Shown here piece by piece: positions 670 through 49,936 of a stretch of DNA of 64,000 bases. The notes beneath the pieces are model-generated. The model made no database searches. It was not told where the DNA came from and saw only the letters and a program-made list of their open reading frames with translations. Where the stretch lies: contig JBGTNQ010000003.1 in assembly GCA_041742965.1 (NCBI GenBank), positions 12,483 to 76,482 of the forward strand. Direction: 5' to 3'. The translations under genes and the position numbers were made by a program. Position 1 is the first letter of the stretch. Every line of letters begins with the position of its first letter. Origin of the DNA: Minisyncoccia bacterium (lineage in GTDB: Bacteria > Patescibacteriota > Minisyncoccia > Phycocordibacterales > Zambryskibacteraceae).

Positions 670-1506
670 ATGGACGATTTAGTCTCTATTTTTGTTTTTA
701 TGTTCGGTGCGATTATCGGCAGTTTTCTTAATGTTGTTATCTTAAGATACAATACGGGAAAATCTTTAGCCGGTAGGTCTGGATGTTTTTCTTGCGGAAA
801 AAAGCTTCGTTGGTTTGAACTTATTCCTATATTCAGTTTTCTCCTTCTTCGTGGTAGGTGTGGCAACTGTCAATCCAAAATCTCTTGGCAGTATCCCATC
901 GTAGAGCTTTTGAGCGGTCTCCTGTTTGTTTTCTTTTGGCACTGGTTTAGTGTGGAGATCGGAGGGCTGGAGTCTCTATCTAAATTTGTGCTGTCCGTCA
1001 CCCTCTGGTCATCTCTTTTGATTATATTTTTCTATGATTTTAGGCATAAAATCATTCCAGATCTTTTTTCCTTCCTTTTTTCCTTTTGTGCACTGGCTCT
1101 TCTGACAATTAGTGTGTATTTCTATGGGTGGGGCATATTACCTAGCCATCTATTGGGAGCAATTTTGCTTTCTGGATTCTTTTTCGCCCTATGGTTTTTT
1201 TCAAATGGTCGATGGATGGGGTTTGGTGATGTAAAACTCGCTCTAGGTATTGGTCTCTATTTGGGTCTTTCTCAGGGTCTTTCTGCTTTAGCTTTTGCCT
1301 TTTGGATTGGTGCTGGTTTTGCAATTTTAAGGATAGTCGGCTCGAAATTGATTGTTCGTATGGGCATAAAGCGATTGAGTTCGGTTGGCGGAGGGCTTAC
1401 AATGAAGAGTGAGGTTCCGTTTGCTCCTTTTCTGATTATCGGCACATTCATCGCCCTCGTACTTCAAAGTGATGTGTTTCAAATAACTCTTTTTTTCAAT
1501 GTTTAA
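670..1506 (+). CDS. pilD: Prepilin peptidase (A24 family, PilD-like)
   Basis: N-terminal zinc-ribbon tetracysteine motif (CFSCGKKL...RCGNCQ), a polytopic membrane region and a GFGDVKL catalytic-Asp motif. Confidence 0.8.
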   Translation: MDDLVSIFVFMFGAIIGSFLNVVILRYNTGKSLAGRSGCFSCGKKLRWFELIPIFSFLLLRGRCGNCQSKISWQYPIVELLSGLLFVFFWHWFSVEIGGLESLSKFVLSVTLWSSLLIIFFYDFRHKIIPDLFSFLFSFCALALLTISVYFYGWGILPSHLLGAILLSGFFFALWFFSNGRWMGFGDVKLALGIGLYLGLSQGLSALAFAFWIGAGFAILRIVGSKLIVRMGIKRLSSVGGGLTMKSEVPFAPFLIIGTFIALVLQSDVFQITLFFNV

Positions 1507-2782: not shown

Positions 2783-3334
2783 ATGAAATTCTTTTTTACA
2801 AAAACAAAAAATAAAATCAGTTCTTCTCGAGGATTCACCCTTTTGGAGGTTCTTATTGCTATAACTATTTTTATCTTTGCTCTTGTGGCTACCATGACCG
2901 CCGCTAGGAGTGGTCTGGCAAGTGCATACGAGTCTAGAGATCAGGTCATTGCTTTTTATCTGGCCCAAGAAGCAGTGGAGTTTATAAGAAATAAGAGAGA
3001 TACAAACAGTATTTTGAATACAGTTACTCCAACCAACTGGCTTAGTGGCGTCTCTAATCTTTCTAGTGATCCATGTTACCCCGGTAAAGTGTGTCTCATT
3101 GATGTTGTGGCGAACCAGATTACTGCCTGCGCCTCGCCAACCACCTGTCCAAACCTAAGACAAGATGTAAATACAAAAATGTACGGCTACGATTCTTCTT
3201 GGTCTTTAAATCAGTTTAAGAGAGAGGTTAGGGTGCAAAATATTAATGCTGACGAGGTGTCTATGACCGTTCTTATTACTTGGCCAAAGGGAAGTTTTGA
3301 AGTCAAAGAGATAATTTTAAATTGGCAAACTTAA
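2783..3334 (+). CDS. Pilin-like (pseudopilin) protein
   Basis: An internal ATG at 2783 gives MKFFFTKTKNKISSSRGFTLLEVLIAITIFIF; the longer ORF start at 2624 overlaps the preceding gene and is unlikely. Confidence 0.65.
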   Translation: MKFFFTKTKNKISSSRGFTLLEVLIAITIFIFALVATMTAARSGLASAYESRDQVIAFYLAQEAVEFIRNKRDTNSILNTVTPTNWLSGVSNLSSDPCYPGKVCLIDVVANQITACASPTTCPNLRQDVNTKMYGYDSSWSLNQFKREVRVQNINADEVSMTVLITWPKGSFEVKEIILNWQT

Positions 3335-3840
3335 TGAAAAACAAAAGATTTAAAATTAAAGACAGTTCACGGGGTATTGCTTTATACATTGCTATTACTA
3401 TCACTGGAGCATTGGTCTTGGTAAGTTTTGCCGTTGTAAATTTAGCCATTAGACAGATAAACATATCCTCAGCGGGGAGAGACTCACAGACCGCTTTTTA
3501 TGCGGCTGATAGCGGTGCTGAATGCGCCCTATTTTGGGATGTGAAGAACCCTTCAGGGCAGACAGCTTTTTCAACCACTACACCACAGACAACACTTTCT
3601 TGTAATGCTGACGCATCAAATCCCCTAAATGCCACTATTTCTATAAACAGAACATCTAATGGACCATATGCTACTTCAACTTTTAATATCACCTTTCTTC
3701 CCAGAACTTATTGCGCCACGGTAACTGTTGCAAAGAACTACTCTAGTGGTGTTCGGACAACCATAGAATCAAAGGGGTATAATACCTGTGCGTCAGGCGC
3801 CCTAAGGCGCGTAGAGAGGGCCATAAGAGTAGATTACTAA
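3334..3840 (+). CDS. PilX-like minor pilin
   Basis: MKNKRFKIKDSSRGIALYIAITITGALVLV resembles the PilX-type N-terminus; the start sits in a TAATG overlap with the upstream gene. Confidence 0.5.
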   Translation: MKNKRFKIKDSSRGIALYIAITITGALVLVSFAVVNLAIRQINISSAGRDSQTAFYAADSGAECALFWDVKNPSGQTAFSTTTPQTTLSCNADASNPLNATISINRTSNGPYATSTFNITFLPRTYCATVTVAKNYSSGVRTTIESKGYNTCASGALRRVERAIRVDY

Positions 3841-5898
<2,058 letters not shown>

Positions 5899-5933
5899 AA
5901 GTCTAAAAAAGTGATAATATTAGTGCTAATTAT

Positions 5934-6227
5934 ATGATTACCCCAGAAGACATAGACAAGCTTTCTAATCTATCTAGAATCGAGGTTTCCGAAGAAGAGA
6001 AAATTTCTTTCTCGAAGGAAATTGATTCCATTTTAGAATATGTGGGTCAGATATCAGAGTTGGCGAGTGAGTCAGGTGAAACAGAGCAAACCTCCTCTGT
6101 CAGGAATGTTTTTCGTCAGGATGAAAATCCACACGAAAGCGGTTTGTACACGGAGACTCTATTGAAGGAAGCTCCTGATAGTCAGGATGGCTTTGTGAAG
6201 GTTAAAAAAATTTTGTCACATGATTGA
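5934..6227 (+). CDS. gatC: Asp/Glu-tRNA amidotransferase subunit C
   Basis: Approximately 97-aa GatC-like protein (ITPEDIDKLSNLSRIEVSEEE...) directly upstream of gatA. Confidence 0.8.
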   Translation: MITPEDIDKLSNLSRIEVSEEEKISFSKEIDSILEYVGQISELASESGETEQTSSVRNVFRQDENPHESGLYTETLLKEAPDSQDGFVKVKKILSHD

Positions 6228-7635
6228 TTTAAATAATCTTTCAATAAAAAGAGCAAAAGATTCTTTTGAAAAAGGTGAGTATAGTCCCTCTGAATTGGTG
6301 TCAGAGTATTTAAATGTAATAGAGGAAAAAAATCCACAGATAAATGCTTATTTAGAAGTTTTTAGAGACGATGCATTGTCACAGGCAAAAGAAGCTGAGA
6401 AAAAAATAAAAGACGGAACTAGTGGAAAACTTTCAGGCATTCCTTTGGCTGTTAAAGATAATATTTTGATAGAAGGCAAGATTGCTAGTGCTTCTTCAAA
6501 AATACTTTCTTCATTCACGGCTCCCTATAATGCTACAGCCATCGAGAGGTTGAAAAAAGAAGGAGCTATTTTTCTCGGTAGGACAAATATGGATGAATTT
6601 GCGATGGGTAGTTCTACAGAAAATTCTGCATATGGACCGACAAAAAATCCACTTGATGAATCGCGCGTCCCTGGTGGTTCTTCTGGCGGTTCTGCCGCTG
6701 CAGTAGCTATGAATGGGGCTCTTGCCGGTTTGGGCACTGATACTGGTGGTTCCGTGAGACAGCCGGCTAGTTTTTGTGGGAAGGTAGGATTTAAGCCAAC
6801 TTATGGAGCCATATCAAGGTATGGCCTTATAGCTATGGGTAGTTCATTAGACCAATTGGGGACAATCACAAATACAGTGGATGATGCAGAGAAACTTTTT
6901 TCTATTATGAAGGGAAAAGATCCGATGGACAGCACTTCGTATTATCCAGAAGAAAAGAAGGCCAAAGACGGTGCTTTAACCATAGGCATACCCAGAGAAC
7001 TGTTTGACGGACTGAGTAAGGATGTACTTGAAAATGTCGAGTCGGCCATAAATAAGTTTCGGGATTTGGGATATAAAATTCTAGATATTGAATTACCGAG
7101 TGCTAAAAACGCCCTAGCTGTCTATTATATTTTGATGCCGGCTGAAGTCTCATCCAATCTTGCAAGGTTTGACGGTGTAAAGTATGGGCTTCACAAGGAA
7201 GGAGAAGATCTTTTGGATGAATATCTAAAGACTAGGGGCGAAGGTTTTGGCAAAGAAGTTCGGAGGCGTATTATGCTTGGAACATATGTGCTTTCTGCTG
7301 GGTACAGCGATGCCTACTATAGGAAAGCACTTTCTGTACAGAAGTTGATACAAAAAGAGTATGAAAAATCTTTTGAAAAAGTAGATTTAGTATTGACTCC
7401 CACTACTCCTACACCGGCCTTCTCCATAGGAGAGAAGACTAGTGATCCTTTGCAAATGTATTTGGCAGATGTTTTCACTGTACCTGCAAATATTTCTGGG
7501 AATCCTTCAATATCACTTCCAAATGGAACAGTTCCTTGTGGAGAGAAGAGTCTTCCTTTGGGTGTACAATTAATATCGTCAAATTACGCTGAAGATACTC
7601 TTTTTAGAGCAGGAAAAGATTTCTTGGGAGAATAA
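6220..7635 (+). CDS. gatA: Asp/Glu-tRNA amidotransferase subunit A (amidase)
   Basis: Amidase signature GGSSGGSAAAVA; translationally coupled to gatC. Confidence 0.9.
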   Translation: MIDLNNLSIKRAKDSFEKGEYSPSELVSEYLNVIEEKNPQINAYLEVFRDDALSQAKEAEKKIKDGTSGKLSGIPLAVKDNILIEGKIASASSKILSSFTAPYNATAIERLKKEGAIFLGRTNMDEFAMGSSTENSAYGPTKNPLDESRVPGGSSGGSAAAVAMNGALAGLGTDTGGSVRQPASFCGKVGFKPTYGAISRYGLIAMGSSLDQLGTITNTVDDAEKLFSIMKGKDPMDSTSYYPEEKKAKDGALTIGIPRELFDGLSKDVLENVESAINKFRDLGYKILDIELPSAKNALAVYYILMPAEVSSNLARFDGVKYGLHKEGEDLLDEYLKTRGEGFGKEVRRRIMLGTYVLSAGYSDAYYRKALSVQKLIQKEYEKSFEKVDLVLTPTTPTPAFSIGEKTSDPLQMYLADVFTVPANISGNPSISLPNGTVPCGEKSLPLGVQLISSNYAEDTLFRAGKDFLGE

Positions 7636-8305: not shown

Positions 8306-8371
8306 GTTGCACCGAGGCTCTATTTGGGTATAATGTGCCACACAGGCTGTGTTCGGCCAATCAGATGGCGG

Positions 8372-8640
8372 GTTGCCGTACGCACCTGATCATTACAAAA
8401 GTAGAGTATGGTCAATATAGCGGGTTGGAGGAGTAGTACCTCGCAAGGGGACAAAGACTCATAACCTGCACAGGTTAAGTTAATTAAGTGTATATTTAGA
8501 CATAGCGGGTTGCCGTACGTACCTGATCATTACAAAAGTAGAGTATGGTCAATATAGCGGGTTGGAGGAGTAGTACCTCGACAGGCTCATAACCTGTAGG
8601 CATCAGTGCAATTCTGATACCCGCAACAAGTATGAAAATA
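8372..8640. repeat. Tandem direct repeat (2 x ~135 bp) in the tRNA-Met leader region
   Basis: The unit gcgggttgccgtacgNacctgatcattacaaaagtagagtatggtcaatatagcgggttggaggagtagtacctcg...ctcataacctg occurs twice in tandem and is followed by a perfect 16-bp hairpin (8630-8672). Confidence 0.6.
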
Positions 8641-8866: not shown

Positions 8867-8941
8867 GCGGGCGTAGCTCAATTTGGTTAGAGCACTCCCC
8901 TGTCACGGGAGAGGTTGCCGGTTCAAGTCCGGTCGCCCGCG
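8867..8941 (+). tRNA. tRNA-Asp (anticodon GUC)
   Basis: Acceptor GCGGGCG/CGCCCGC, anticodon loop CUGUCAC, T-arm GCCGG-UUCAAGU-CCGGU. Confidence 0.9.
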
Positions 8942-9135
8942 CATAAAACAAACTGTCCCGGACGCGAAAGCGTTCGGGCAGTATTGTTTTACAGTGACGC
9001 CGGACTTGAAAGACGGAGGCCGCGAAGCCGTCCTGAGCTTTGCGAAGGGCGTGGCCGAGTCCGGGCAGGAGCCACTTATGACCCCGCTATGGCGGGGGAA
9101 TTAGTGAGCTGACGCCAAGTCCGGTCGCCCGCGCA
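8942..9135 (+). other. ~190-nt GC-rich structured element abutting the tRNA-Asp 3' end, ending in a 19-bp duplicate of that 3' end
   Basis: GNRA-capped hairpins (e.g. CCCGGACGC-GAAA-GCGUUCGGG and CCCCGC-UAUG-GCGGGG). The direct repeat aagtccggtcgcccgcgca occurs at 8925-8943 and 9117-9135. A near-identical copy lies at 10939-11129. Confidence 0.6.
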
Positions 9136-9214
9136 TCGAGAAAAACAGGGCTAAAAACATAGCTCTGTTTTTTATACTGACGGGATTTTGGAACCGGTGA
9201 TATACTTTTGGTGT

Positions 9215-9889
9215 ATGGAAATAAAACAATATGACTGTTTTGAAGGCGAGAGCGTAGATTTAACACAGGCAGAAGCTGTATTAAGGGAAAAACCTGATGT
9301 TATTATTCTCGAAGCACCTGCAGATAGTGAAAAGGACCCTTCTACAATCTTTAATAACTATGAAGTATATGAAAAACCAATTGAGATGGTCCTTGAATAT
9401 CAGAAGAATTTAAGAGAATCCTCAAGTAAATTTAAATGGGTTGAGTCAGATATATTCCTGTATGAAAACATTGTTAAGTTATGGAAGGAAGGGCATAACG
9501 TAGACATTTATAGAGTCGATGCGCCTGCAGAATTGTTGAAATTATCAACGGACTCCACCTGGCCGGGTTATAGAATGACTGAACCTCTTAGGAAGGGGGT
9601 GGAGTTTAAGTGGTGGGTTTACGTCTATATAAGGGAAACAATAATGACTAAAAATATCAGATTTATTTTAGAAGTTCCTCGCTATTCAGATAGAAAGATA
9701 TTGATTTTTTTGCAAAAATTTCACTGGGACAATGTTAGGTTTAGATTAGAAAATAACGAGGATGACATATTTAGCTATTATTTCTCAGATTTCAAGGATG
9801 TCAATAAAATTAATATAAACGATAAGGTGCAGGAATTAGAAAACGACATTCTCTACAAATATTGGAATAAGGTGAAAGGTCTAAGTTAA
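9215..9889 (+). CDS. Hypothetical protein (cassette 1), paralog of 49070..49738
   Basis: Approximately 45% identity over the full length to the ORF at 49070..49738 (KPDVIILEAP/KPDIIFFEAP, KLWKEGHNVDIY/TLWKNGHDIKLY, FLQKFHWDNVRF/FLQKFHWHNVKF). The start is placed at the ATG aligned with the paralog and with the conserved spacer promoter. Confidence 0.6.
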   Translation: MEIKQYDCFEGESVDLTQAEAVLREKPDVIILEAPADSEKDPSTIFNNYEVYEKPIEMVLEYQKNLRESSSKFKWVESDIFLYENIVKLWKEGHNVDIYRVDAPAELLKLSTDSTWPGYRMTEPLRKGVEFKWWVYVYIRETIMTKNIRFILEVPRYSDRKILIFLQKFHWDNVRFRLENNEDDIFSYYFSDFKDVNKININDKVQELENDILYKYWNKVKGLS

Positions 9890-10032: not shown

Positions 10033-10482
10033 ATGACCATCCCCACTCACATTCTTCTCGGTGCCATTATTGGGAAAGTTACAGGGAATTATGCACTGGC
10101 AATTGGAGCGTCTGTTATTCCCGACATTGACCACTTTGGCTCATATATAAAAAGTGGGGTTATAAAAAAGCCGAAAGTTTTTTGGGACACAATCACTAGT
10201 GCAGACGACCCTCACGGAGACCAGAGAGGTATACTGCACAATTTATTTTTCTTTCTAATTATTTCTGCTCTGTTTTATATTTTTTTACCCAAAATCGCTC
10301 TTGTCTTGGTTTTGGGATGGTTTGGGCACATTATTTTAGATGCCCTAGATAAGTCAGATTACTGGCCGTTCTACCCTAACAAAAGTGTCAACATACGAGG
10401 GCTCATCAAATATGCTTCTGCTCAAGAGCTCATGTTCTTTCTGGCTCTATTAATTATATTTATAACCCTGTTCTTCTTATAG
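10033..10482 (+). CDS. Membrane protein, YdjM/DUF457-like putative metal-dependent hydrolase (cassette 2)
   Basis: TM helices with conserved His/Asp residues (PTHILLGAII...PDIDHFGSY...GHIILD). Confidence 0.45.
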   Translation: MTIPTHILLGAIIGKVTGNYALAIGASVIPDIDHFGSYIKSGVIKKPKVFWDTITSADDPHGDQRGILHNLFFFLIISALFYIFLPKIALVLVLGWFGHIILDALDKSDYWPFYPNKSVNIRGLIKYASAQELMFFLALLIIFITLFFL

Positions 10483-10515: not shown

Positions 10516-10908
10516 ATGGACTCTACCAATGAATTTTCTTTTATATTAAAACCCTCAGAGCATGGGGTTGGAGTTTTTGCCACGCAGGATATTAAACAAG
10601 GAACACACCTGAGATTATTTGGGGATAATGAAGTGGTTAATTTGAAAGCATTAGAAAGAGAGAAAGAATCTGTTCCCGAGTTTTATCAAGAACATTGTTT
10701 AAATAGGGGAGACAAACTTATTTGTCCTCAAGATTTTGGACACATGCACATTGGTTGGTATTTAAATCACTCTAATAATTACAACGCTATTCCTGATGAA
10801 GTATATGAATGGTATGCATCAAGAGATATAAAATCTGGAGAGGAGATTCTTGTTGACTACAATACACTTGATGAACCAGACGAGTCTAAAGCTGATTACT
10901 ACAAATAA
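10516..10908 (+). CDS. SET-domain protein (putative protein-lysine methyltransferase) (cassette 3)
   Basis: GVGVFATQDIKQGTHL, NHSNNYN (NHSxxPN-like) and GEEILVDY motifs. Confidence 0.7.
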   Translation: MDSTNEFSFILKPSEHGVGVFATQDIKQGTHLRLFGDNEVVNLKALEREKESVPEFYQEHCLNRGDKLICPQDFGHMHIGWYLNHSNNYNAIPDEVYEWYASRDIKSGEEILVDYNTLDEPDESKADYYK

Positions 10909-10938
10909 TAGTTCTAACCTCCTCCACCAAGTTGCGCA

Positions 10939-11129
10939 TAAAACAAACTGTCCCGGACGCGAAAGCGTTCGGGCAGTATTGTTTTACAGTGACGCCGGAC
11001 TTGAAAGACGGAGGCCGCGAAGCCGTCCTGAGCTTTGCGAAGGGCGAGGCCGAGTCCGGGCAGGAGCCACTTATGACCCCGCTATGGCGGGGGAATTAGT
11101 GAGCTGACGCCAAGTCCGGTCGCCCGCGC
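10939..11129 (+). other. Second copy of the ~190-nt structured element, internal to the cassette array
   Basis: One mismatch relative to 8944-9135. It is preceded by the degenerate tRNA-Asp 3'-end-like motif CCACCAAGTTGCGCA and ends in GCCAAGTCCGGTCGCCCGCGC. Confidence 0.6.
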
Positions 11130-11200
11130 TGATGAGATTTTCACCATTAAATCCTTTAACCATAAGGATTTTTTGGTTCTAACCTGGTATTATTTTAGGT

Positions 11201-11728
11201 ATGAAATATATGAAGTTTATTAGAATTTTTCTCCTAGTTTTAATTGTTATTGGATTGGGACTGATTGCTACTCAAAAAATGTGGGTACCGAAGCTTGTAA
11301 CTCAAATATTGAACCGAGGGGACATGGTAGTTAACAAAGAGATTATTCCAGATGAGGCATCAGCCTTCGGAGATATATCTGGAGATAATAAGATTGTTGT
11401 TTCTGGAGTGTATAGTTACAATCAATTTATTGGCACTCTTCCATCACTAGATTTTTACGTTGATGAAGTCACCGCACATTTGATACCCCGAGGATTTGAT
11501 GATGATCGAATTCCGTGGTTTGGGATTTTAAATCAGGAGAAGGCTATGGCCTTATTGGGGATTAGTTCTAAAGAATTAGGAGGGAATATCTGTGAGATTA
11601 AAGGGAATGCAGAAATAGAGATATCAAAATACTTAATCTATCGAGGGGAGTCCGAGGGAAAAGATGGAGCGACTCTAACAAAATTGTTGAAGGTTAGCCC
11701 TCCCACCTATATCAATTGTACAAATTAG
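11201..11728 (+). CDS. Hypothetical membrane-anchored/secreted protein (cassette 4)
   Basis: N-terminal TM/signal MKYMKFIRIFLLVLIVIGLGLIA; no recognisable domain. Confidence 0.5.
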   Translation: MKYMKFIRIFLLVLIVIGLGLIATQKMWVPKLVTQILNRGDMVVNKEIIPDEASAFGDISGDNKIVVSGVYSYNQFIGTLPSLDFYVDEVTAHLIPRGFDDDRIPWFGILNQEKAMALLGISSKELGGNICEIKGNAEIEISKYLIYRGESEGKDGATLTKLLKVSPPTYINCTN

Positions 11729-11836
11729 GTTGGTTCTAACATCCTCCACCAAGTTGCGCATCGAGAAAAATAGAGCTAATAATATGGCTCTATTTTTTAT
11801 ACTGATGGGATTTCAGAACCGTGATAATATTTTGGT

Positions 11837-12733: not shown

Positions 12734-12845
12734 TTGTATAGCAGTTCTAACTTCCTCCACTAAGTTGCGCATAGAAAAAAGTAGGGCTAATAATATGGCT
12801 CTATTTTTTATACTGATGGGATTTTAGAACTGATATACTTTTATT

Positions 12846-44212: not shown

Positions 44213-44815
44213 ATGGAGAAACCAGAATTAACAAAAGAAGAGCTTCAGAAAAAAGTCGCTGAGTTGGAAGCGGAAATTTCTATTTTAGAAAAAGATTTGA
44301 TTCACGATCATCTAACCAATCTTAAGACAAGGGGATTTTTTGAAGAAGAAGCAAAGATGTATCTTGAGATGGTGGCGCATTCAGATGATACTCGGCGAAA
44401 ACAGTGGTTTGGTTTTCGCAACGCAAGTATTATTCTTTTTGATACGGACTATTTTAAAAAAGTAAACGACACCTTTGGGCATTTGGTGGGAGACGAAGTT
44501 TTGAAGAGTGTTTCAAAAACAATTGAAGATTCACTTCGTGAAGGCGACACCGCTTCTCGTTGGGGTGGGGAAGAAATCGCTGTGCTTTTACTTGGCGCAA
44601 ATGAAACTGACGCTGTTGCCAAAGCAGATGAAATACGGGAAGAAATTTCAAAATTAAAATTTTCTGCTTTAGATTTGTCAGTTACTATTTCAGCGGGTGT
44701 AGCTTCTTCAGAAAAAGGTGTACATCTTTCAGAGCTTGTTGATAGGGCAGACAAAGCTTTATATAAAGCCAAAGAAACTGGAAGAAACAAAGTGGTAGGG
44801 TATTCGGAAATATAA
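44213..44815 (+). CDS. GGDEF-domain diguanylate cyclase
   Basis: RWGGEEI (GGEEF) active site preceded by a coiled coil. Confidence 0.8.
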   Translation: MEKPELTKEELQKKVAELEAEISILEKDLIHDHLTNLKTRGFFEEEAKMYLEMVAHSDDTRRKQWFGFRNASIILFDTDYFKKVNDTFGHLVGDEVLKSVSKTIEDSLREGDTASRWGGEEIAVLLLGANETDAVAKADEIREEISKLKFSALDLSVTISAGVASSEKGVHLSELVDRADKALYKAKETGRNKVVGYSEI

Positions 44816-45507: not shown

Positions 45508-48267
45508 ATGTCAGAATATTTTAAATTTACTACCCCAGAACAGGAGCTTGAATACCTACGCTCCAAGGTTCTTGAAGTCGAAAAGAAGCTGGAGAGCAAT
45601 GAGATACAACCTGTGCGAGAATCTGTAATCAGAGAGTCTGTTGCAGAATTTAAGAAAGAAGCCGGCATTGGTGCTCCGGTCGCAAATGCTTTGGAGGTCG
45701 AAAAAGATGCAGAAGTTATTCTGGAAAAACATCAGGAAGCCCAGCTCCAGGAAATGGTAGTTTTAGCAGAATCAAAGGGTATTTCCCATGCGCTTGAGGT
45801 TGTTGCGAAGATTAAAAACTGGCAAGCAGAAGACGACTTTCATGCTTTCCTCGTCGAACAAGTGGCTCAAGGCTTGCCGCCCCCTGGAGTAAAAGAAAAA
45901 GGACCGATATATCAAGCCCTTCATATGAAGCTATTTGAGATTCTACTTCCGAAAGAGGTCGGTACAGAAAAATCTTTAGGGGATCTCATAGGAAGTATGG
46001 AGCAGTTTTACGCTGGGCTACTTTCTATAGCAGGCGACAAAAATGACAAGGTTAGCCATTTAGCTTTTGAGATTGCTAACCCTAACGGTGAAGAAGACAC
46101 TCGAGTTTTTGTTTCTGTACCCGAATTAAGGGTTGATCTTTTTAGCAAACAACTTTTAGCAATTTTTCCTAAAGCACGACTTATCGACAGGAAGAGCGAT
46201 TACAATATTTTCAATGAATTAGGTACAACTCTGGGTGTTTCCGCGACATTGTCTAGTTCCCCCGCCTATCCTTTAAAGACTTCTGAAGATTTTTCTTCAG
46301 ATCCGCTCAACGTAATTTTAAATGGGTTTTCCAAAATACCTAAGGTTGGCGCGGGAGCCACTTTGCAAATTATTTTTAAGCCGATTGGAGATACTTATGC
46401 AAAAAAATTCGAGTCTGCTTTAAAGAAAATTGAAAAAGGAGAGAACCCCAAAGAAGCCTTGCGAGACGATGGGGTCGCAATGGAATTGACACGCTCGATT
46501 GGAGAAGCTTTCTTTAGTAAAAAGAAAGAAAAGAAAGAAAAGGAAGATAAACCCATAGTTATAGATCAAGGGATTGTTGGAGCAATTAAAAAGAAGCTCC
46601 AAAGCCCAATAGTTGAGACTAATATCCGTTTTGCGACTTCAGCCCCTACCGAAGAAGAGGCTCGTCAGTTAATTCACAATTTCACTTCTACCTTCAATCA
46701 ATTCGAGAATCCCAGCAGGCAGAATATTACTTGGACTGAAGCGAAATCTTCTGGGTGGCTCGCACTTAAAGACAATGATTTCTACAAGTCATTTATTTTT
46801 CGACTGTTTAAAGATACCGAAAAGATACCGCTTAATCTTTCAGAACTTTCTACAATTCTTCATTTCCATACCGAAGCATTATCTTCCAGCTCGACTCTCA
46901 GTCGCACAAAATCAAAAAGCGCACCGCCACCTGTAGGTCTTCCAGAAGCCGGCACCCTCTTAGGCATCAATTCATTCCAGGGAGTTGAGAAAAGTATATA
47001 TATCGCTCCAGAGGACCGCCTAAGGCATTTCTACGCTATTGGTCAGACTGGTACAGGTAAGTCCACCTTGCTCAAAAACATGATTATTGAGGACATTAAA
47101 AATGGCGAAGGGGCTTGTTTCATTGATCCGCACGGTTCTGATGTGATGGAAATTCTTGCCAATGTACCCAAGGAAAGGTTGGAAGACGTGATCTACTTCG
47201 ATCCCGCTTCTACTGAGCGACCGATGGCCTTGAACATGCTCGAATACGATCCCCACTTTCCTGAACAGAAGACCTTTGTCGTTAATGAACTTTTCTCTAT
47301 TTTCCAGAAGCTCTATGGCGGTAGCCCAGAATCCATGGGGCCCATGTTCGAGCAGTACTTCCGTAACGCCACGATGTTGGTGATAGAAGACCCAGAGAGT
47401 GGTTCAACCCTACTTGACGTCTCTCGGGTAATGTCTAGCAAGGAGTACCGCGACTTGAAGCTTTCCAGATGCAGGAATCCGATAGTTGTCCAGTTCTGGA
47501 GAGAGATCGCTGGTAAGGCTGGAGGAGAGGCCGCACTCGTTAATATGGTTCCCTACATCACATCAAAATTTGACGTTTTCTTGGCCAATGACATTATGCG
47601 TCCGATCATCGCACAAGAGAAATCCTCATTTAATTTCCGAGAAATTATGGATGGAAAAAAGATTCTTCTGGTAAATCTTGCCAAGGGCCGTCTGGGAGAT
47701 ATCAATGCTAATCTTATCGGTCTCATTTTGGTTGGTAAAATCCTAATGGCCGCACTTTCTCGTGTAGATGCGCTTGGTCAAAATCTTCCTTCCTTCTATT
47801 TATACATAGATGAATTCCAGAATATTACTACCAACTCAATCGCCACGATTCTTTCCGAAGCTCGAAAGTATAAGCTTTCGCTTACAATTGCCCATCAATT
47901 TATTGCGCAACTTCAGGAAGATATTAAAAATGCTGTTTTCGGCAACGTGGGTACAATTTGTTCTTTCCGAGTTGGCCAAGATGATGCTGAATATCTACAG
48001 AAACAGTTTGCTCCAACTTTTGCAGCACAAGATATTGCCAGCATCGATAATTTTAATGCTTATATAAAAATGCTTATTCATGGCAAGCCAGTTGAGCCCT
48101 TTGATATCCGCCTGATGCCAAGACAAACCGGAGATCAGTCAAATATCGAAATTGCTAAGCAGGTATCCTCGGTAAAATACGGACGTGATAGAGCTGAGGT
48201 AGAAGCTGCGATTATGGCTAAGTACCAACCCTTGCAGGAAGTAGTTTCCAGCTCTCAGATTCTTTAA
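45508..48267 (+). CDS. FtsK/HerA-superfamily ATPase, type IV secretion-like (VirD4/TraG coupling-protein-like or VirB4-like)
   Basis: Walker A AIGQTGTGKSTLL and Walker B LYIDEFQN followed by ARKYKLSLTIAHQFIAQL...FGNVGTICSFRV; a ~470-aa N-terminal non-ATPase domain. Confidence 0.6.
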   Translation: MSEYFKFTTPEQELEYLRSKVLEVEKKLESNEIQPVRESVIRESVAEFKKEAGIGAPVANALEVEKDAEVILEKHQEAQLQEMVVLAESKGISHALEVVAKIKNWQAEDDFHAFLVEQVAQGLPPPGVKEKGPIYQALHMKLFEILLPKEVGTEKSLGDLIGSMEQFYAGLLSIAGDKNDKVSHLAFEIANPNGEEDTRVFVSVPELRVDLFSKQLLAIFPKARLIDRKSDYNIFNELGTTLGVSATLSSSPAYPLKTSEDFSSDPLNVILNGFSKIPKVGAGATLQIIFKPIGDTYAKKFESALKKIEKGENPKEALRDDGVAMELTRSIGEAFFSKKKEKKEKEDKPIVIDQGIVGAIKKKLQSPIVETNIRFATSAPTEEEARQLIHNFTSTFNQFENPSRQNITWTEAKSSGWLALKDNDFYKSFIFRLFKDTEKIPLNLSELSTILHFHTEALSSSSTLSRTKSKSAPPPVGLPEAGTLLGINSFQGVEKSIYIAPEDRLRHFYAIGQTGTGKSTLLKNMIIEDIKNGEGACFIDPHGSDVMEILANVPKERLEDVIYFDPASTERPMALNMLEYDPHFPEQKTFVVNELFSIFQKLYGGSPESMGPMFEQYFRNATMLVIEDPESGSTLLDVSRVMSSKEYRDLKLSRCRNPIVVQFWREIAGKAGGEAALVNMVPYITSKFDVFLANDIMRPIIAQEKSSFNFREIMDGKKILLVNLAKGRLGDINANLIGLILVGKILMAALSRVDALGQNLPSFYLYIDEFQNITTNSIATILSEARKYKLSLTIAHQFIAQLQEDIKNAVFGNVGTICSFRVGQDDAEYLQKQFAPTFAAQDIASIDNFNAYIKMLIHGKPVEPFDIRLMPRQTGDQSNIEIAKQVSSVKYGRDRAEVEAAIMAKYQPLQEVVSSSQIL

Positions 48268-48324
48268 TACCTCCCAGAGTTTGAATCCCAGACTCGTTCG
48301 ATCTATGTAAGCTCAAAAAAGCGT

Positions 48325-48376
48325 TATACAAAGCCAAAGAAACTGGAAGAAACAAAGTGGTTGGGTATTCGGAAAT
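48325..48376 (+). pseudogene. Duplicated 3'-terminal fragment of the GGDEF gene (right-end repeat)
   Basis: See the insertion at 44812-48324. Confidence 0.55.
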
Positions 48377-48445
48377 TTAGTCTCTAAAGAGAATAGGCGG
48401 CGACATCTCTGTCGCCGCCTATGTGTTACCCTTGACCTCGCCAGC

Positions 48446-48928
48446 CTAGCGACAGGTGGTCGCTGAGGATGAGGTTACGTAGAACCCAGTCTCATCCCAC
48501 CTCAAATTCAAGGTGAGGATGAGAACCTCCATGGTTCCACCACCACCCTTAGGGATAATGCGGAAGCTGTACGTGTACTGTGCCTCCCCAGATGTCGAGG
48601 TGGTTTCTTGCCACCCACCCCCAATGTTCTGGAAAACATACTCTCGATCTTGGGTGTCAAAGAGACGCCCTCCAGCGACGTTGAAACGCTCCCTATAGCT
48701 TGTGGATCCATCGGGGTTTACCACGAACTTGCGGGTGAAGTGGATGCGATAGGTTCCCTCGACAAACTGGGTTGGTCCACAGAGAGAGAACCAGTTGATA
48801 CTCCAATCTGCCCATTCGCTTGTTGCTGACTGGGCACTCATTTCGGCGCGGACAGGCTCTGTGGGCAGGGCGTTACCGCAAGCGGCGATGAACATCATCG
48901 CACAGAGTGCCAACATCTTCCGGAACAT
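48446..48928 (-). CDS. Putative lipoprotein (GC-rich)
   Basis: Lipobox FIAACG, ~55% GC and a terminator hairpin at 48395-48422. Confidence 0.5.
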   Translation of the reverse strand: MFRKMLALCAMMFIAACGNALPTEPVRAEMSAQSATSEWADWSINWFSLCGPTQFVEGTYRIHFTRKFVVNPDGSTSYRERFNVAGGRLFDTQDREYVFQNIGGGWQETTSTSGEAQYTYSFRIIPKGGGGTMEVLILTLNLRWDETGFYVTSSSATTCR

Positions 48929-49069: not shown

Positions 49070-49738
49070 TTAATTAAAATCTGAGTATTTACGCCAATAT
49101 TTATAAAGTATTTTGTTCCCTTTTTTTATCCTCAGATTGATATTTTTTTCATTTAGATTATTAAAACTACCAAAGTAATAATTCCAAATTCGCTTCTTTG
49201 TTGGTTTAGACATCTGAAACTTTACATTGTGCCAATGAAATTTCTGTAAAAACATTAAGATTATAAGATTATTTTTGTTCCTGTATTGATACAAAACTTT
49301 TTGAATATTTTTTACCATAATCTTCTCTCTTAGATACATTTTTACCCACCATTCAAAATGGGTTCCTCTACGGTAGGGTTTATGATTCTGATAACCACTT
49401 TTTTCTAGGTCTATCTTTAATAGTTCTGACGGACCGTCAACTTTATATAATTTGATATCGTGCCCGTTTTTCCAAAGAGTGGCAATATTATCATAAACAT
49501 AAATATCAGATTTTACCCATGGAAATTTTTTTGCAACCTGAAGTAGATCTTTCTTTTGCTTCTTTAGCCTATTTAGAGGCTTTCTTGATGGAGGAAATTT
49601 GTTGTATATGGAATCAGGTGTTTGGCTATTGTTGGGCGCTTCAAAGAAAATAATGTCAGGTTTGTGTCGTGTTATGGCATTTGCCTGACGCATATCCACG
49701 CCTTTTCTTTCTATGCAACTAAATTGATATATTTTCAC
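49070..49738 (-). CDS. Hypothetical protein, paralog of 9215..9889, immediately downstream of tRNA-Ser
   Basis: See the paralog at 9215..9889; the orientation relative to the tRNA is the same in both cases. Confidence 0.6.
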   Translation of the reverse strand: MKIYQFSCIERKGVDMRQANAITRHKPDIIFFEAPNNSQTPDSIYNKFPPSRKPLNRLKKQKKDLLQVAKKFPWVKSDIYVYDNIATLWKNGHDIKLYKVDGPSELLKIDLEKSGYQNHKPYRRGTHFEWWVKMYLREKIMVKNIQKVLYQYRNKNNLIILMFLQKFHWHNVKFQMSKPTKKRIWNYYFGSFNNLNEKNINLRIKKGNKILYKYWRKYSDFN

Positions 49739-49849
49739 GTTTTTTATTCTTAAATTATTTTTTCTATAATCTCAATTTTGACGGAGCACTTCGCTAAAGG
49801 CTCAGCACCCTCGCAAAATCAAAGCCCTAATGTGTCGGGCTAGATTTTG

Positions 49850-49936
49850 CGGAGGGTAAGAGATTTGAACTCTTGAAGGACTTTCGCCCTTGCCACCTTT
49901 CCAAGGTGGTGCACTAGACCACTATGCGAACCCTCC
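49850..49936 (-). tRNA. tRNA-Ser (anticodon GGA)
   Basis: Minus-strand cloverleaf with a long variable arm: acceptor GGAGGGU/ACCCUCC, anticodon loop UUGGAAA, T-arm AAGAG-UUCAAAU-CUCUU. Confidence 0.85.

Follow-up and report, generated by a model that had tools for sequence, protein, structure and literature searches.

We examined two genes, here called A and B, that lie 3' of two different tRNA genes in a 64,000-nucleotide (nt) stretch of a Minisyncoccia genome (contig JBGTNQ010000003.1 of assembly GCA_041742965.1; hereafter, the window). BLASTP aligned their products over 221 residues with 44% identity and 68% positives (E 3e-68), in agreement with the identity of about 45% between two proteins of about 225 amino acids (aa) reported in the initial annotation, and the motifs listed there are conserved columns in the family alignment described below. 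Both open reading frames (ORFs) are real and clearly paralogous. ARAGORN and Rfam placed the tRNA genes at 272 nt (tRNA-Asp to A) and 110 nt (tRNA-Ser to B) from the paralogs, confirming that each is the first gene 3' of a tRNA on its own strand; the coordinates that had been given for the tRNAs are those of the ORFs themselves (Table 1), and the earlier account is partly confirmed. A TTG codon at 9188 was rejected as the start of A, the family alignment favoring the ATG at 9215. Neither protein matched a model in Pfam, NCBIfam, PHROG, or PADLOC at E ≤ 1, upholding the statement that no known recombinase motif is present. The GC content (guanine plus cytosine fraction) is 0.339 for A and 0.308 for B, relative to 0.406 for the window.

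The tRNA-Asp locus contains a 196-nt unit, consisting of a structured element followed by a copy of the 3' end of the tRNA (the tail), which occurs twice with 99% identity (8939-9134 and 10934-11129). The 1995-bp repeat interval holds A, a YdjM-family gene, and a SET-domain gene. The 21-mer CAAGTCCGGTCGCCCGCGCAT, which spans tRNA-Asp from its T-loop to its 3' end, is found at 8924 and again at 9116, with a third occurrence, of the first 19 nt alone, at 11111; this 19-mer is thus present in three copies, where chance would predict none. Such a layout is as expected for a small cassette integrated at the T-loop site of a tRNA gene beside a minimal 192-bp unit. Past the interval lie the gene for a 175-aa protein, murB, an exonuclease-family gene, an HNH gene, tRNA-Thr, a release factor gene, ftsE, and ftsX.

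Table 1. Features of the two paralog loci and elements that end in a tRNA tail. Positions are those of the window unless a locus from elsewhere (L number) is given.
Feature	Position	Strand	Description
Paralog A	9215-9889	+	224 aa, ATG start; cytoplasmic alpha/beta protein; conserved E33, D102, R140, H170
Paralog B	49070-49738	-	222 aa, GTG start
tRNA-Asp(GTC)	8867-8942	+	ARAGORN; Rfam tRNA 69 bits; last in a Met-Met-Asp tRNA cluster
21-mer CAAGTCCGGTCGCCCGCGCAT, copy 1	8924-8944	+	T-loop to 3' end of tRNA-Asp
Structured element, copy 1	8945-9115	+	171 nt, GC 0.60, GNRA-type loops
Tail, copy 2 of tRNA-Asp 3' end	9116-9136	+	begins exactly past T-loop GGTT
Hairpin, then T run	9140-9172	+	terminator-like by eye
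Promoter-like site CTGACG-18-TGnTATACT	9177-9206	+	between hairpin and A
YdjM-family membrane protein	10033-10482	+	Pfam PF04307, E 8e-13; in bracketed segment
SET-domain protein	10516-10908	+	Pfam PF00856, E 2.8e-11; in bracketed segment
Second 196-nt unit	10934-11129	+	structured element and tRNA-Asp tail (11111-11129); precedes unrelated 175-aa gene
VirD4/TraG-like coupling-type ATPase	45508-48267	+	919 aa; Pfam T4SS-DNA_transf, TraG-D_C
Promoter-like site TTGAGA-18-AAGAAT	49746-49775	-	between tRNA-Ser and B
tRNA-Ser(GGA)	49849-49936	-	ARAGORN, Rfam; directly upstream of B
Tail element, Asp	8945-9136		A follows
Tail element, Asp	10940-11131		175-aa gene follows
Tail element, Gln	18834-19033		after tRNA-Gln (18762-18833); no family gene; next gene on opposite strand
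Tail element, Val	L024 5510-5632		scaffold 79% identical over 80 nt to that of the window; family gene follows
Tail element, Gln	L010 ~676-786		homologous to window tRNA-Gln element, E 2e-7; family gene follows
Tail element, Gly	L008 ~5838-5937		family gene follows
Tail element, Met	L022 6079-6222	-	no family gene adjoining

Other repeats occur around this locus. Ahead of several genes, murB among them, is an intergenic module of about 99 nt (9108-9206, 10905-10947, 11727-11831, and 12738-12842; 68-88% identity) in which GTTCTAACnTCCTCCACnAAGTTGCGCAT is followed by a hairpin with a T run and then by a promoter-like site. The module begins like a tRNA-Asp tail in shortened form, and analogous units at L024, of the form ..AAGTAAGTCATCGCCCAC plus promoter, echo the tRNA-Val tail found there. 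We considered these units as cassette boundaries but dropped the idea, because murB, too, is flanked by such units, which resemble a shared hairpin/promoter module. Upstream, an 84-nt direct repeat (8365-8448 and 8502-8585; 95% identical) covers the region preceding the first tRNA-Met gene (8556-8627) and the 5' part of that gene, and the copy further upstream is possibly a tRNA-Met duplicate that has been truncated or has degenerated.

The genes around paralog B differ widely in GC content; B itself is situated between tRNA-Ser and the gene for a VirD4-like ATPase, which lies about 0.8 kb away and is convergent with it. Directly adjoining B (GC 0.31) is a 160-aa ORF (48446-48928, minus strand; GC 0.54) with an N-terminus that resembles a lipoprotein signal by eye; the contrast in composition suggests separate acquisitions. 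In addition, a GGDEF-domain gene (44213-44815) has its 3'-terminal 62 nt repeated 3.5 kb downstream with 94% identity (44753-44814 and 48318-48379). The two copies bracket a 134-aa ORF and the ATPase gene, as though the 3' end of the GGDEF gene had received an insertion. Elsewhere in the window, 20052-22241 (plus strand) encodes a fused nitroreductase-YcaO protein of 729 aa, suggesting a modification gene of the azoline/RiPP (ribosomally synthesized and post-translationally modified peptide) type, or a related one, in a small genome.

A rare protein family

A word-indexed search of 5.8e9 proteins returned four close relatives of the paralogs, and an exhaustive HMMER profile search of 1.84e9 cluster representatives returned 62, many of them fragments. 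In a collection with one genome per species, all five genomes matched were metagenome-assembled genomes of the Candidate Phyla Radiation (CPR, or Patescibacteria), assigned to Parcubacteria, Saccharibacteria, and Azambacteria; metagenomes added 21 family loci. The close clade of A and B was met only in CPR genomes.

An alignment of 27 sequences splits into two clades. Six residues are invariant in it (D102, P104, R140, M144, H170, and W171) and six more are nearly so (P27, E33, N47, K54, W90, and F190). After the first strand, the clade of the window reads 'I.Q..C.E' (Q5...C8.E10) and its sister clade 'IH..EP.H'. Some members of the sister clade carry N-terminal extensions that resemble lipoprotein signals by eye (..LVGC.., ..VLGC..); the CPR clade has no signal sequence.

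Predicted fold and superfamily

A first AlphaFold2 (AF2) model, built with five sequences, was mediocre (predicted local distance difference test score, pLDDT, of 70); Foldseek already placed Tetrahymena chains at the top for this model, a result uninformative by itself. With the 27 sequences, AF2 returned a confident model (pLDDT 93.4; predicted template modeling score 0.90) in which strands at residues 2-5, 29-35, 97-102, and 161-165 alternate with helices in beta-alpha-beta order, a helical insertion spans residues 45-91, and a long helix (131-152) bears R140, E141, and M144. The best Foldseek matches in the PDB were 7w5z_E (E 0.04), ChaN (2g5g; E 0.058), and 8bqs_DQ (E 0.25), and the best in BFVD was a TraB family protein of Marseillevirus (E 0.022, probability 0.82). 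Judging from their length (383-384 aa), the Tetrahymena chains 7w5z_E and 8bqs_DQ would be COXTT5, listed in a table of complex IV subunits as a 385-aa 'TraB family protein' (PMC10060162, supplement); a phmmer search of the PDB with YbaP did not identify the Tetrahymena chain. Sequence searches of the PDB with two family profiles returned only noise.

The LRExxMxxN helix weakly matched the Pfam Erythro_esteras model in four of the 27 members and in the consensus (best E 0.0018), and the four matches with coordinates shown (three members and the consensus) all fall in one stretch, model positions 178-229; the same helix region matched DUF5682 in two members. Recombinase families were absent both from the Pfam matches of the 27 members at E ≤ 10 and from the top 50 fold matches.

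The TIKI superfamily has been described as having a parallel-sheet alpha/beta core, a catalytic set of two His and two Glu residues, and a conserved Arg (PMC6254334). In its member RRSP, a pair formed by the second His and the strand-2 Glu, together with an essential Arg, has been assigned, and the proposed His-Glu hydrolytic mechanism comes from the ChaN/erythromycin esterase group (PMC6254334). In the family studied here, the nearly invariant E33 of the 'FEAP' motif lies within strand 29-35, at the position expected of the strand-2 catalytic Glu; R140, invariant in the 27 sequences, lies in helix 131-152 and would correspond to the conserved Arg; and the invariant H170, accompanied by W171, lies a few residues past strand 161-165, where the second His would be expected. 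The three residues thus agree with the TIKI Glu, Arg, and second His in both order and secondary-structure position, and they form the same set as that of RRSP. A non-significant hhalign register sets the family's 'FE.P' on the TraB 'VEAD' and the His of the sister clade on 'GSIH'. We regard membership in the TIKI/TraB/PrgY/GumN/ChaN/erythromycin-esterase superfamily as quite probable; hydrolase activity in the clade of the window is plausible, although we would stop just short of calling it probable.

Genomic context of the family

Merging near-identical loci left 20 distinct family loci, 19 of which have enough upstream DNA to be judged. A tRNA gene on the same strand lies about 50-275 nt upstream in six of the 19, namely A (Asp), B (Ser-GGA), L010 (Gln), L024 (Val), L025 (Ser-CGA), and L008 (Gly); the remaining 13 have protein-coding neighbors. 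Against an assumed background of about 5%, this corresponds to a P of about 2e-4. The tRNA adjacency noted initially is therefore enriched and non-random across the family, but it is not obligatory.

The recurrent neighbors point to mobile or variable DNA. A VirD4/TraG-like ATPase of 920 aa is encoded within 0-74 nt of the family gene at L006, L012, and L018, and with the window such pairing is seen in four of the 20 distinct loci. At L018, on a 784-kb CPR contig, the ATPase and family genes (3238-6657) follow rplC-rplD-rplW-rplB and precede ndk, and are an accessory pair inserted in a ribosomal protein gene cluster; at L006, the pair follows mreB. Large serine recombinases occur in two groups of loci, L007/L026 (beside tRNA-Ser) and L020-23, the latter also containing an IS200 transposase. 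A Fic gene lies further downstream at L002, L005, and L011, and at L003 a gene for an AAA_33 kinase overlaps the start codon of the family gene. In one subclade, a conserved protein of 147-148 aa, with the motif YLFHGS near its N-terminus, is encoded 17 nt downstream of the family gene (L001, 2463-2906; L002, 899-1345; L005, 3345-3791; and L011). This protein, which had no match in Pfam, PADLOC, or the PDB, may be a functional partner of the family.

A structured element that ends in a tRNA tail

The elements listed in Table 1 share one architecture: a GC-rich, structured unit of about 100-190 nt has at its end a 15- to 21-nt copy of the 3' end of the adjacent tRNA, and this copy always starts directly past the T-loop GGTT. 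The first element of the window (8945-9115) has a predicted RNA fold of -96.5 kcal/mol (z -5.5), and RNAalifold returned a small conserved helix with compensatory changes. An internal segment just 5' of a conserved GAAAG(A/C)CGGAG motif varies with the tRNA and is complementary to the tail or the T-arm: it is GCCGGACTTG in the window (Asp), where it is complementary to the start of the following tail, GTGAGGGGCTCG at L024 (Val), and AGCCTGGAATTG at L022 (Met). In an ungapped test of complementarity between tail and element body, which is crude and sensitive to the tail boundaries, two of six elements were individually significant. The element had no Rfam match, either at the gathering threshold or at E ≤ 10; two exact-pattern scans of viral contigs for its core found no match, and no further copies came up when the element variants were compared by BLAST with all fetched loci.

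In the fetched CPR DNA, a tail copy lies within 450 nt of seven of about 21 distinct tRNAs, three of them having no adjoining family gene. One of these three is the window tRNA-Gln, whose element is flanked by hairpins with T runs, and another is a tRNA-Ser at L007, where a shorter tail copy lies beside the serine recombinase. Such independence of the element from the family gene speaks against an effector role for the protein. At L022, the tRNA-Met gene is followed by a terminator-like hairpin and then by the element, whose internal segment and tail form a perfect 12-bp complement; a second, AT-rich unit at about 5955-5985 of the same locus ends in an Asp-like tRNA 3' end and is convergent with a real tRNA-Asp gene.

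The element may be an attachment (att) arm, a site at which folded nucleic acid recombines, or a tRNA-like processing signal that is transcribed. It is conceivable, if rather unlikely, that it represents a new kind of folded recombination site (as RNA or single-stranded DNA), loosely comparable to integron attC sites or guide RNAs, or else a tRNA-like processing signal nucleating arrays of cassettes at tRNA genes, with the TraB-like family as one frequent first cassette.

Origin and function of the paralogs

We consider it somewhat better than an even bet (a probability of about 0.55) that A and B are cargo of small mobile modules, and that they are probably TIKI/TraB-type hydrolases and not recombinases. 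The initial annotation had offered two alternatives, a novel family that drives insertion at tRNA genes or simply a cargo gene of tRNA islands. The latter is supported by the 196-nt repeats, the low GC content, and the position of six of 19 loci after varied tRNAs; the former is not, given the 13 loci with no adjacent tRNA, the tail elements that lack a family gene, and the hydrolase-like model. Of the properties expected of islet cargo, atypical GC content and a patchy distribution are found here, and direct repeats of a tRNA 3' end are found for A, but not for B. On this reading, the family would consist of rare cytoplasmic proteins of about 220 aa that share the alpha/beta fold of the TIKI/TraB/PrgY/ChaN/erythromycin-esterase type and act as metal-independent hydrolases, either esterases or peptidases. 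Water would be activated by His170 and Glu33, a pair situated at the C-terminal ends of the parallel strands, with Arg140 holding the substrate. Since the clade of the window appears to lack the first of the two His residues in the 2His/2Glu set, the reaction that it catalyzes or the substrate may be different. The modules would land beside tRNA genes and elsewhere: A probably arrived with the YdjM-like and SET-domain genes in a cassette of about 2 kb at the T-loop/3' end of tRNA-Asp, and B would occupy a compositionally patchy islet between tRNA-Ser and the VirD4-like ATPase module. The tRNA-proximal position would then be non-random because the genes reside in small mobile or variable modules.

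Several observations weigh against the proposal that A and B are mobile hydrolase cargo. Mobility is something that we infer, because neither an empty site nor an excised form was seen; the ORFs scanned around the two islets (about 6.2-22 kb and 42.6-55 kb) included no integrase, and a second copy of the tRNA-Ser 3' end was not found in the window, leaving B with no att-type repeat. The 5% baseline for tRNA adjacency is itself an estimate. With regard to the fold, Foldseek returned no match at E < 1e-3, and the TM-scores are low (0.26-0.35); Pfam gave no match at the curated cut-off (18.5 bits for the best Erythro_esteras match, relative to 26.4); and hhalign of the family profile was not significant either against YbaP alone or against a 12-sequence TraB/YbaP alignment (probability 0.4%), the latter being narrow, with all the relatives listed for it at least 59% identical. 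Finally, the first catalytic His (GxxH type) is absent from the clade of the window, which has Gln there, while the sister clade has His.

Among the other explanations, a role in DNA transfer is suggested by the close pairing with the VirD4/TraG-like ATPase at L006, L012, and L018 and its presence 0.8 kb from B. The predicted superfamily also includes TraB and PrgY from enterococcal conjugative plasmids. The family protein could be an accessory factor that works with the ATPase in transfer, such as a TraB/PrgY-like regulator or a processing enzyme within a minimal transfer module, with its tRNA position a by-product of module integration. The isolation of the gene pair between housekeeping genes at L018 and L006, and the 62-nt GGDEF 3'-end duplication that brackets the ATPase gene of the window, fit this idea. 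We nevertheless consider it unlikely, given that the pairing is confined to four of 20 distinct loci, with varying gene order and orientation, that A has no ATPase neighbor, and that the scanned flanks contain no other components of a type IV secretion system. Genes of conflict systems, whether inter-microbial or directed against mobile elements, likewise cluster in variable islets, and the protein could be a toxin, an immunity protein, or a modifier in such a system. RRSP is one of several TIKI members that act as toxin effectors (PMC6254334), and partners are tightly linked at some loci (the 147-aa protein, Fic, and the AAA_33 kinase). These partners vary from locus to locus, however, with no two-gene architecture conserved family-wide, and PADLOC recognized neither the family nor its partners; we judge this explanation to have a small chance of being correct. 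That the genes are ordinary chromosomal ones, and their tRNA adjacency coincidental, would suit the majority of family loci, which are not beside tRNAs, as well as the proximity of the housekeeping genes murB, gatA, and msrB and the repeated hairpin/promoter module that also flanks murB. Coincidence is nonetheless improbable in view of the excess over the baseline, the att-type repeats around A with their three copies of the 19-mer, and the low GC content, patchy distribution, and varying neighbors.

The two remaining explanations give the tRNA itself a part. If the protein acted on tRNA or aminoacyl-tRNA, for example by hydrolysis of the aminoacyl ester, its position might reflect co-expression; adjacency to six different tRNAs is enriched, and the predicted superfamily includes esterases. 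This is very improbable, since most loci are not tRNA-linked, no RNA-binding domain was detected, and at A and B the tRNA is separated from the gene by promoter-like sites, as well as by a hairpin with a T run. The proposal of a novel recombinase or insertion factor for tRNA 3' ends, perhaps guided by the structured element, draws on four genomes in which the order is tRNA, element, tail copy, and family gene, and in which the tail varies (Asp, Val, Gln, and Gly) on a conserved scaffold. These four loci were, however, found by way of the family gene and are a biased sample; elements follow the window tRNA-Gln, the L022 tRNA-Met, and, with a shorter tail, the L007 tRNA-Ser with no family gene, and the second copy in the window precedes an unrelated gene. 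Moreover, the consistent linkage to an insertion site that a recombinase should exhibit was not found, 13 of the 19 loci having neither tRNA nor element; the predicted fold resembles those of hydrolases, not of nucleases or recombinases, with no DNA-binding domain; and real serine recombinases are present in two locus groups. Given this distribution and fold, we reject the recombinase idea, which is already largely refuted and retains scarcely any probability.

Relation to known systems

Among known proteins, the TraB/PrgY/GumN group (PF01963; including E. coli YbaP, COXTT5, and the Marseillevirus TraB) is represented among the top fold matches in both the PDB and BFVD, with weak scores. Similarities include the size of the soluble domain (about 220-260 aa), the alternation of strands and helices, and the location of three residues, with a Glu following strand 2, the conserved Arg within a long helix, and a His following one of the late strands. 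In contrast to that group, the present family gives no significant sequence or profile match, has no membrane anchor, lacks the GxxH His in the clade of the window, and is found, as regards its close clade, only in CPR genomes. ChaN (2G5G) is the second-best PDB match, and the erythromycin esterases (EreA/EreB, Bcr135/136; PF05139) are weakly but repeatedly matched by the LRExxMxxN helix in one model stretch; unlike these proteins, the family is about half the size of the Ere enzymes and has no heme-binding or macrolide context. With the phage-type tyrosine integrases and large serine recombinases, the family shares only its position immediately 3' of a tRNA gene: there is no similarity in sequence, profile, or fold, and true large serine recombinases are encoded by separate genes at L007 and L020.

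The segment that carries A can be compared with the tycheposon islands of Prochlorococcus, where partial tRNA copies flank inserted genes, older elements are displaced inward as integration at one tRNA is repeated, and remnants without an integrase are common (bioRxiv 10.1101/2020.12.28.424599). The same tRNA-copy-flanked layout is seen here. Unlike those islands, however, the units of the window are tiny (0.2 and 2 kb) and have no integrase or replication module, and the conserved, structured, GC-rich element at the end of each has not been described for such islands.

Most likely, A and B represent a new family-level variant of a known superfamily. For an unannotated, CPR-centered family, the analysis provides an initial idea of structure and function, that of a probable minimal cytoplasmic hydrolase of the TIKI/TraB type with a reduced catalytic set. 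It also suggests that streamlined CPR genomes bear very small, integrase-less cassettes at their tRNA genes, which bears on how these organisms exchange genes. The tRNA-tail element is the part likeliest to yield novelty; if our suggestion holds, it would be a site, or an RNA, that marks or mediates insertion at tRNA T-loops.

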